From Escherichia coli (GTDB lineage: Bacteria > Pseudomonadota > Gammaproteobacteria > Enterobacterales > Enterobacteriaceae), in NCBI RefSeq assembly GCF_003334765.1, contig NZ_QOWT01000002.1: a stretch of 64,000 nucleotides of DNA; one strand, 5' to 3'. Below, one piece after another: positions 52,346-52,717 of this stretch. The notes beneath the pieces were generated by a model. It searched no databases. It was not told where the DNA came from and saw nothing but the letters and a program-made list of their open reading frames with translations. Within the stretch, counting starts at the first letter, position 1. Each line of letters starts with the position of its first letter. Position numbers and translations under genes: made by a program.

Positions 52346-52717
52346 AATTAATTAATGTCATCAGGTCCGAAAATAACGAGAATATTTCAGTCTCTCATCC
52401 TGTTGCGCTCCTGTCATGTGCATTGCTTCATATAATCACTGGCGCAAGGAGCGCGCAGGGGGCGGCCAATCGCCGCCGCCCCCTGCACCCCCGGGCTCTG
52501 GCGAACAAAATCGCCGCTGCGCGGTGCCCTCGACTTATCCCTTACGGCTACCGGGTCGGGCGCGAGGTAACATCCCTGTAAAACGCGCCCTCAGCCCACA
52601 TCCATGTGGGCTGCCCCGGCCTTCAGGGAACGCCTCGGCAATTTTGACGCCACCAAACAACCGTGCGGCCTATTGATAAAGAGCTAACACATTGTCAAAA
52701 AACATCACTATGGTTTT

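Follow-up and report, generated by a model that had tools for sequence, protein, structure and literature searches.

The GC-rich yohP-dusC spacer of Escherichia coli is the TRIP1c/RRS-dusC repeat

Identity of the spacer

The convergent genes yohP (52262-52345, + strand) and dusC (52718-53665, − strand) of E. coli are separated by a block of DNA that is far richer in G+C than its surroundings, which raises the question of what this block is and what it does. Positions are given for the window, that is, the whole 64,000-nt stretch of DNA analyzed, in which each coordinate equals the NC_000913.3 coordinate minus 2,176,720 and which is 100% identical to a J53 chromosome (K-12). G+C content in 100-nt windows was 0.64-0.72 across 52400-52650 and 0.33-0.42 on either side; the interval 52402-52674 averaged 0.637, compared with 0.349 in the left flank, 0.398 in the right flank and 51% in the whole window. 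These values (64% vs. 35-40%) confirmed the contrast between a GC-rich block and AT-rich flanks that an earlier, sequence-only reading of this DNA had noted. The neighboring gene mdtQ (yohG; 50602-52038, −) is a frameshifted pseudogene in this K-12-derived record and an intact 1437-nt gene in O157:H7 and others.

The spacer is TRIP1c, which is the same element as RRS-dusC; the observation was real, and the element had already been described. The repeat was catalogued by Rudd in 1999 under the name TRIP1 (PMC10888264) and was surveyed in 6725 genomes by Li et al. in Genes in 2024 (PMC10888264). Independently, Pham, Cox, Goodman, and coworkers came upon the lysO and dusC copies, at which two RecA/SSB peaks on ssDNA were anchored, and coined the name RRS (replication risk sequence) for them (NAR 2023, PMC10287960; NAR 2024, PMC11194060), with later work in a 2026 preprint (PMC13308219). 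The novelty implied by the sequence-only reading did not hold, since the block belongs to a catalogued family, TRIP1 (PMC10888264), with a function described as RRS (PMC10287960, PMC11194060). The finding is a rediscovery of a repeat catalogued in 1999 and assigned a function in 2023-2024, to which the present analysis adds 17 compensatory pairs (both strands alike), a reading frame broken in 16/18 copies, inversion of the dusC copy in 37% of genomes, and a sub-threshold likeness to the TwoAYGGAY RNA motif.

The published G4-forming 20-mer GGGGGTGCAGGGGGCGGCGG, on the RRS "G4 strand" (as in PMC11194060), matched the window exactly and only once, at 52473-52492 (−), against a chance expectation of 0. 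The segment 52437-52659 (NC_000913.3 2229157-2229379; 223 nt here) is the published "222-bp" RRS repeat, and its column-by-column comparison with the K-12 lysO-aqpZ copy, which lies on the opposite strand, revealed 1 mismatch (52640) and a 1-nt indel (52655) only. Over the full unit, that copy is 94.5% identical to the dusC copy across 272 nt. The full K-12 copies occupy NC_000913.3 915018-915288 and 2229115-2229388, 1.314 Mb apart, giving a half-distance of 657 kb; the RRS copies are reported to lie symmetrically, ~650 kb either side of dif, the position of dif being taken from the RRS papers (PMC10287960, PMC11194060). Over most of the window the + strand had a negative GC skew, the pattern of the left replichore, indicating that the minus (G-rich) strand is the lagging-strand template, in agreement with PMC11194060. 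Together, the 20-mer, the 222-bp inverted partner, the GC skew, and the copy spacing place the identity with the published sequence beyond doubt, and no difference from the RRS-dusC of K-12 described by Pham et al. was found in the 20-mer, the inverted partner at lysO, the adjacency to dusC, or the G-rich lagging template.

Agreement with the catalogued repeat was equally complete. By similarity to the other copies, the full TRIP1c unit extends over 52395..52668 (274 bp, 64% G+C), starting at ~52395, slightly upstream of where the sequence-only reading had begun the block. Li et al. describe a TRIP1c of 273 bp that is separated by 43 bp from the yohI (dusC) gene upstream of it and by 363 bp from the yohG (mdtQ) gene downstream of it (PMC10888264); measured from the yohG start and the yohI stop, these distances map onto 52402-52674, 273 bp. 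The length (~273 bp), the G+C content (62-65%), the 43-44 bp past the yohI stop, the distance to yohG, the 94% identity to TRIP1a, and the presence of an internally deleted TRIP1b at putP all agreed, with no difference; this third K-12 copy lies between putP and efeU and has its middle deleted.

The claim that the block is not a REP element also stood: the REP consensus, represented by the naRNA4 model, had no match at the element and matched in the window only at 646-716 (−) and 59883-59960 (−). Both naRNA4 (REP-derived) matches reached the Rfam gathering threshold, as did, elsewhere in the window, an OrzO-P antitoxin RNA (27643-27718, +), a TPP riboswitch (8571-8667, −), and a Peptidase-S11 RNA motif (48154-48234, −).

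Conserved fold, G-run, and the replication-gap reading

At the left of the element, a domain helix (GCGCTCCT / AGGAGCGC; 52405..52454, arms 52405-12 and 52447-54) encloses a variable A+T-rich loop. Hairpin 1 (arms GCAGGGGGCGGC, 52455-52466, and GCCGCCCCCTGC, 52475-52486) is a perfect 12-bp G+C stem with its 3' arm overlapping the G4 motif. A long-range closing stem (52499..52652, with 52499-52512 pairing to 52640-52652) encloses a central two-hairpin domain, in which hairpin B (52558..52590) has the outer stem GGGCGCG / CGCGCCC and the inner stem-loop ACATCCCTGT (ACAGGGAUGU on the G-rich strand), and hairpin A (CAGCCCACAT, 52592-52601, and ATGTGGGCTG, 52604-52613) has a 9-10-bp stem, 10-nt arms that are 100% complementary, and the loop AUGGAU on the G-rich strand. 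The inverted-repeat search returned a further arm pair at 52506-21 / 52631-46. Both inverted repeats listed by the sequence-only reading were perfect and in their places, but the first has equal 12-nt arms around an 8-nt loop, not a 5-nt loop.

The folding energy of the single strands gave z = -5.8 for the G-rich strand and z = -5.5 for the C-rich strand, with 0/200 dinucleotide shuffles folding as well; either strand as ssDNA was ~21 kcal/mol more stable than the shuffles. In an alignment of 18 copies from E. coli, Kluyvera, and one Enterobacteriaceae genome, 98.7% of cells were paired across 72 predicted pairs. Compensatory changes were found at 10 pairs (27 cells), where shuffles gave 4.0 pairs (5.4 cells; 0/500) and controls with slid partners gave 0-3; after three Klebsiella copies were added they were found in 17/67 pairs. 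They were spread over the fold: three pairs in hairpin 1 (C-G to A-T in O157 and in one Kluyvera copy, G-C to A-T in Klebsiella); one in the left-domain helix at 52405..52454 (T-A to C-G); changes in the closing stem of A-T to G-C in Kluyvera and of T-A to C-G and G-C to C-G in Klebsiella; and 3-4 pairs in hairpin A, in which the loop was A[U/G]GGAU in all copies while the stem varied. Such changes preserve the hairpins and not the G4. Because they exceeded both the shuffles and the slid-partner controls, they argue that the whole multi-hairpin fold is selected and not the G-run alone; judged from these substitutions, the hairpins are under selection besides the G-run. Wobble-type changes occurred on both strands, in 11-14 cells (+) and 5-7 cells (−), small counts that are reported here as balanced. 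Being about equal on the two strands, they make no call between DNA-level and one-strand RNA selection, and balanced counts are what DNA-level structure would give.

Across Escherichia, Kluyvera, and Klebsiella, the G-runs showed little or no variation. The G4Hunter score at the G-run was 1.84 here and 1.76-2.12 over all 18 family members, and the motif was one-sided, the element having no G-rich window on its other strand (lowest score -1.20, read on the G-rich strand). The K-12 run is not a canonical four-tract G4, consisting of two G5 runs plus GG runs; in one Kluyvera copy, CCCCTGCA is expanded three-fold, which yields a canonical G4 motif. Other 25-nt windows with |G4Hunter| ≥1.5, on a par with the RRS G-run, were located at 3365, 9084, and 28055 (+) and at 48646 (−), so the G-run alone is not distinctive within the window. 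The surrounding hairpins are probably no less important than the G4.

The best explanation overall, to which we assign a probability of roughly 85%, is that TRIP1c/RRS-dusC acts as folded DNA that forms gaps on the lagging strand. As the fork unwinds the element, the exposed lagging-strand template would fold; in K-12 the folding strand would be the G-rich minus strand, carrying its G-quadruplex-forming run set among conserved hairpins. The lagging-strand polymerase would stall at the fold and re-prime downstream, and the outcome would be a transient ssDNA gap of ~0.3-2 kb that binds SSB and RecA. Near the borders of the Ter macrodomain such a gap might serve as a topological swivel, a "topological relief valve" in the hypothesis of the RRS authors. 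Of this account, the computations made here establish which element it is, where and on which strand the G4 lies, how the repeat is built, and that its fold is conserved; gap formation, conditional essentiality, and the effect on supercoiling come from the literature.

In that literature, the lagging-strand RecA/SSB peaks in ssGap-seq are RRS-dependent (PMC10287960), and RecA and SSB load onto ~2 kb of lagging-strand template beside the RRS (PMC10287960, PMC11194060). Pol I, II, and IV halt at the G4 of the G-rich strand, and an RRS placed at an ectopic site generates a new peak (PMC11194060). Single deletions are viable, while the double deletion was obtained only with a 200-kb insH7-8 amplification or with ectopic or inverted copies, at least one RRS copy being conditionally essential according to its authors; losing or inverting both copies alters the genome-wide supercoiling pattern, and engineered RRS inversions gave no RecA/SSB peak in vivo (PMC11194060). 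In single-molecule experiments, a gap was formed at about every replisome passage when lagging-strand synthesis copied the G4 strand and at ~66% of passages when the element was turned around, the gaps lying on the lagging strand in both orientations (PMC13308219). Among the 5426 complete E. coli genomes, 21 had no uninterrupted copy spanning 80% of the 223-bp RRS, and several more had just one place; the 21 genomes offer a possible natural test of the reported need for at least one RRS. The selected hairpins, together with the common "weak" orientation at dusC and the splitting of the element by an insertion sequence described below, all bear on the gap model.

Copies, orientation, and an IS110-family insertion

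Megablast with a 301-bp query placed the family in 5426/5426 complete E. coli genomes, at 1-8 places each (median 3). The comparison with E. coli genomes proposed by the sequence-only reading thus returned a repeated rather than strain-specific element, and of the options listed there, a repeat family other than REP proved to be the correct one. The EDL933 and APEC37 copies were 88-90% identical to the dusC copy. In other strains a copy lies between alx and sstT, a spacer that in K-12 (L007:2046-2445) holds a different GC-rich palindromic sequence of ~190 bp (CCCTCTCCCTTCCAGGGAGAGGGTCGGGGTGAGGG...) where others have TRIP1d. The K-12 sequence presumably resembles the boxC repeat. The TRIP1d and K-12 alleles differ, too, in the final codons of alx.

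At the dusC locus, the K-12 allele was found in 3317/5426 genomes, and the whole cassette was inverted in 2000/5426 (37%), whereas the RRS papers call orientation and position conserved. The inverted cassette has about the same length and different end sequences, and it spans from just after the yohP stop into the last dusC codons, so that the last 3-4 codons of dusC differ between the orientation alleles (EKL* vs. GKLR*; L009/L010:691-1100 vs. window 52346-52727). The lysO-aqpZ spacer, too, is flipped between K-12 and EDL933 (L002 vs. L006). In its variable left-domain loop, the K-12 dusC copy is like the EDL933 lysO copy, and the K-12 lysO copy is like the O157 dusC copy. The lysO and dusC copies of O157:H7 are both inverted relative to K-12, and at either locus, judging from gene order, the lagging template should be the weaker C-rich strand. 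Both orientations were counted by Li et al., who drew no connection to the G4 model (PMC10888264). Two successive Ter inversions with different crossover points were considered as the origin of the flip and rejected; on paper, they swap the repeat centres and never flip the repeat.

A 1384-bp IS110-family element (transposase WP_000868863.1) was found at the same position and in the same orientation inside TRIP1/RRS at four loci in four strains (L011:2925-4308; L132, L133, and L134:2001-3384). It carries the subterminal repeats ATGGACGCTCC / GGAGCGTCCAT, and its junctions, identical at the four loci, read ...GAGGTAACAT|IS|ATCCCTGTAAAACG, which puts the insertion within the hairpin B loop. The corresponding "AT" target lies at 52572..52573 and is uninterrupted in the window. 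The IS110-family element was present in 176/5426 complete genomes and the IS-TRIP1 junction in 174 (~3%), so an RNA-guided insertion sequence splits RRS/TRIP1 at one fixed position in that share of genomes. A 9-nt stretch, TGTTACCTC, in the 3' non-coding region of the IS is the complement of the flank that adjoins the AT core of the target and is a candidate bridge-RNA guide. The element is unmentioned in the TRIP1 and RRS papers.

In E. coli XH992 (L011, NZ_CP019392.1 4204221-4209644), yohP is joined to lysO via a hybrid repeat, with a left half of the dusC type, a right half of the lysO type, and the IS110-family element between them, indicating that the junction of a Ter-region inversion carries the IS inside the repeat. 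The same IS-TRIP1 junction was found in SMS-3-5, a strain whose inversion was ascribed to TRIP1 by Li et al. (PMC10888264). Those authors hold the repeats themselves responsible for the TRIP1a/TRIP1c rearrangements, whereas the one junction examined here has an IS110-family element in the hybrid repeat.

Outside E. coli, the matches listed in a pattern search of genome contigs (GTTGCGCTCCN{30,42}GGAGCGCGC) were mostly chance occurrences in GC-rich genomes, and the real ones among them came only from Escherichia, Kluyvera, one Enterobacteriaceae genome, and some contaminant contigs. Kluyvera copies were 77-91% identical to the dusC copy, compared with the "nearly 100%" of the RRS papers. Kluyvera cryocrescens had at least 6 copies, and one K. 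pneumoniae chromosome had the family at 13 places, in unrelated intergenic sites. In Kluyvera, the TRIP1 core forms the left third of a modular repeat of 700-800 bp. The ~400 bp to the right of the core (L087-L091, L119) contain 1-4 tandem 35-nt units (CGCTGCAAGTTTTCAGCTAAAAGCCAACGCCAATAT), and the extension includes a hairpin ACCGAT..ATCGGT, a second twin-hairpin module, and the terminal hairpin GGGGGGCGCGGCGCCCCCC.

These distributions bear on a rival reading that we consider possible if doubtful, namely that the element is primarily a dispersed intergenic repeat, mosaic or MITE-like, that was once or is still mobile, with the hairpins as recognition structures and the replication effect secondary or co-opted. 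The variable copy number in E. coli, the whole spacer cassettes at dusC and lysO that occur in two orientations with different ends, the filling of the alx-sstT slot of K-12 by another GC-rich sequence, the many places in Klebsiella and Kluyvera, the modular embedding of the Kluyvera core, and the combination of conserved loops with variable stems all favor it. So does the occupancy of alx-sstT in just 23% and of copA-ybaP in 3% of genomes, but every E. coli locus is fixed and common to the species (PMC10888264). Neither terminal inverted repeats nor a target-site duplication could be defined, and no transposase was seen beside any copy. Examined as a MITE, the family offered no clean empty site: alternative cassettes replace the whole spacer, and end similarities were short and inconsistent. 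It was absent from phages, and the "plasmid" matches seen were all typed as non-mobilizable, several being chromosome-sized records. On these comparisons, the family behaves like a dispersed intergenic repeat, albeit with no terminal repeats, target duplications, or transposase found, and its dispersal (13 Klebsiella places, at least 6 in Kluyvera) is hard to square with a role that depends on two symmetric positions. The mobile-repeat view is itself compatible with the experimentally shown gap formation, and folded DNA that forms lagging-strand gaps remains our preferred account of the dusC copy.

RNA-level readings and comparison with known systems

The TwoAYGGAY RNA motif (Rfam RF01731; Weinberg et al. 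2010, PMC2864571) was the best or only Rfam match for four diverged copies of the repeat, always on the G-rich strand and over the full length of the model (1-168). The score was 29.7 bits here (E 0.048), 36.6 bits for the alx-sstT copy, and 30.6 and 30.2 bits for other copies. The architectures correspond, with a large closing stem and two hairpins joined by AG that bear the loops AUGGAU and AGGGAU; the P1-like stem is present in TRIP1, with covariation. Loop A, AUGGAU, fits the motif, and loop B, AGGGAU, has G at the Y position, a variant that also occurs in seed sequences. The seed members from Psychromonas are likewise multi-copy, with loops that include CACAUGGAUGUG and ACAGGGACGU. All TRIP1 scores were below the gathering threshold of 43 bits, and membership is therefore not established; a scan at E-value and gathering thresholds gave no passing family at the element, only sub-threshold TwoAYGGAY plus microRNA and snoRNA noise. 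The literature search found no link between TRIP1/RRS and TwoAYGGAY. In Kluyvera, the second twin-hairpin module scored 39.4 bits against TwoAYGGAY, on the strand opposite to the match inside TRIP1.

From this likeness it is conceivable, in our estimate unlikely, that the RRS/TRIP1 core is a diverged member of the TwoAYGGAY class in which selection keeps the hairpins and the A-N-GGA-Y loops, on either strand, and not a lagging-template G4. The two common orientations, the many copies in Klebsiella and Kluyvera, and the targeting of a hairpin loop by the IS110-family element would fit such a structured repeat, scattered through gut and enteric bacteria and recognised by its loops. If it were true, the orphan TwoAYGGAY motif would gain its first experimentally grounded activity, replication-coupled gaps via folded ssDNA.

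A structured RNA related to TwoAYGGAY, either a small RNA or a dusC 3' UTR whose fold is selected as RNA, is improbable. The G-rich strand is the sense strand of K-12 dusC, 43 nt beyond the stop codon, and a stable "double-Y" RNA was predicted by Li et al. (PMC10888264), points that accord with an RNA as do the TwoAYGGAY matches. The sense strand nevertheless varies, being C-rich at K-12 lysO-aqpZ and reversed at dusC wherever the cassette is inverted; wobble-type substitutions had no strand bias, the promoter/terminator scan gave no signal above chance, and the literature search found no reported transcript for the yohP-dusC spacer. Of the structured-RNA option in the sequence-only reading, the conserved and covarying fold was upheld, while both strands were equally affected and no Rfam family passed at threshold. 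It is very improbable that the element works as a transcription barrier or terminator between yohP and dusC: the genes converge on the element and its hairpins are very stable, but no T-run follows the hairpins, the scan found 0 terminator-like sites, and other TRIP1 copies lie between tandem genes (lysO-aqpZ, alx-sstT, putP-efeU). A real small protein gene can be dismissed, as the 86-aa Pro/Gly/Arg-rich ORF (52416..52676, +), which exists, starts with ATG, spans the element, and owes its composition to G+C content just as the sequence-only reading had judged, is intact in only 2/18 copies and broken in the other 16, the near-identical K-12 lysO copy included, by a stop at codon 3 or 6 or by frameshifting indels.

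With folded, gap-forming DNA as the preferred reading, the element can be set beside three known systems. REP/BIME elements are likewise GC-rich palindromic intergenic repeats at the ends of transcription units and likewise targets of IS110-family elements (IS621 for REP); they differ in sequence and in unit length (~35 bp vs. ~270 bp for TRIP1), and TRIP1 has few copies. TwoAYGGAY shares with TRIP1 the large closing stem, two adjacent hairpins, A-N-GGA-Y loops, and a multi-copy state in a gammaproteobacterium; TRIP1 is set apart by its sub-threshold score, the G for Y in one loop, and an extra left domain with the G4 hairpin, and DNA-level activity has been shown for TRIP1 while none is known for TwoAYGGAY.

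Only two genomic sequences that program post-replication gaps have been described; one is the RRS, and the pilE-associated G4 of Neisseria gonorrhoeae is the only other example cited by the RRS authors (PMC11194060, PMC13308219). In both, a G-quadruplex-forming sequence folds as it is replicated, and the resulting gap or nick has a programmed outcome. The pilE G4, in contrast, is short and canonical, depends on an sRNA being transcribed, and functions in pilin recombination, whereas the RRS spans 222 bp, is rich in hairpins, and has a G-run that is not canonical.
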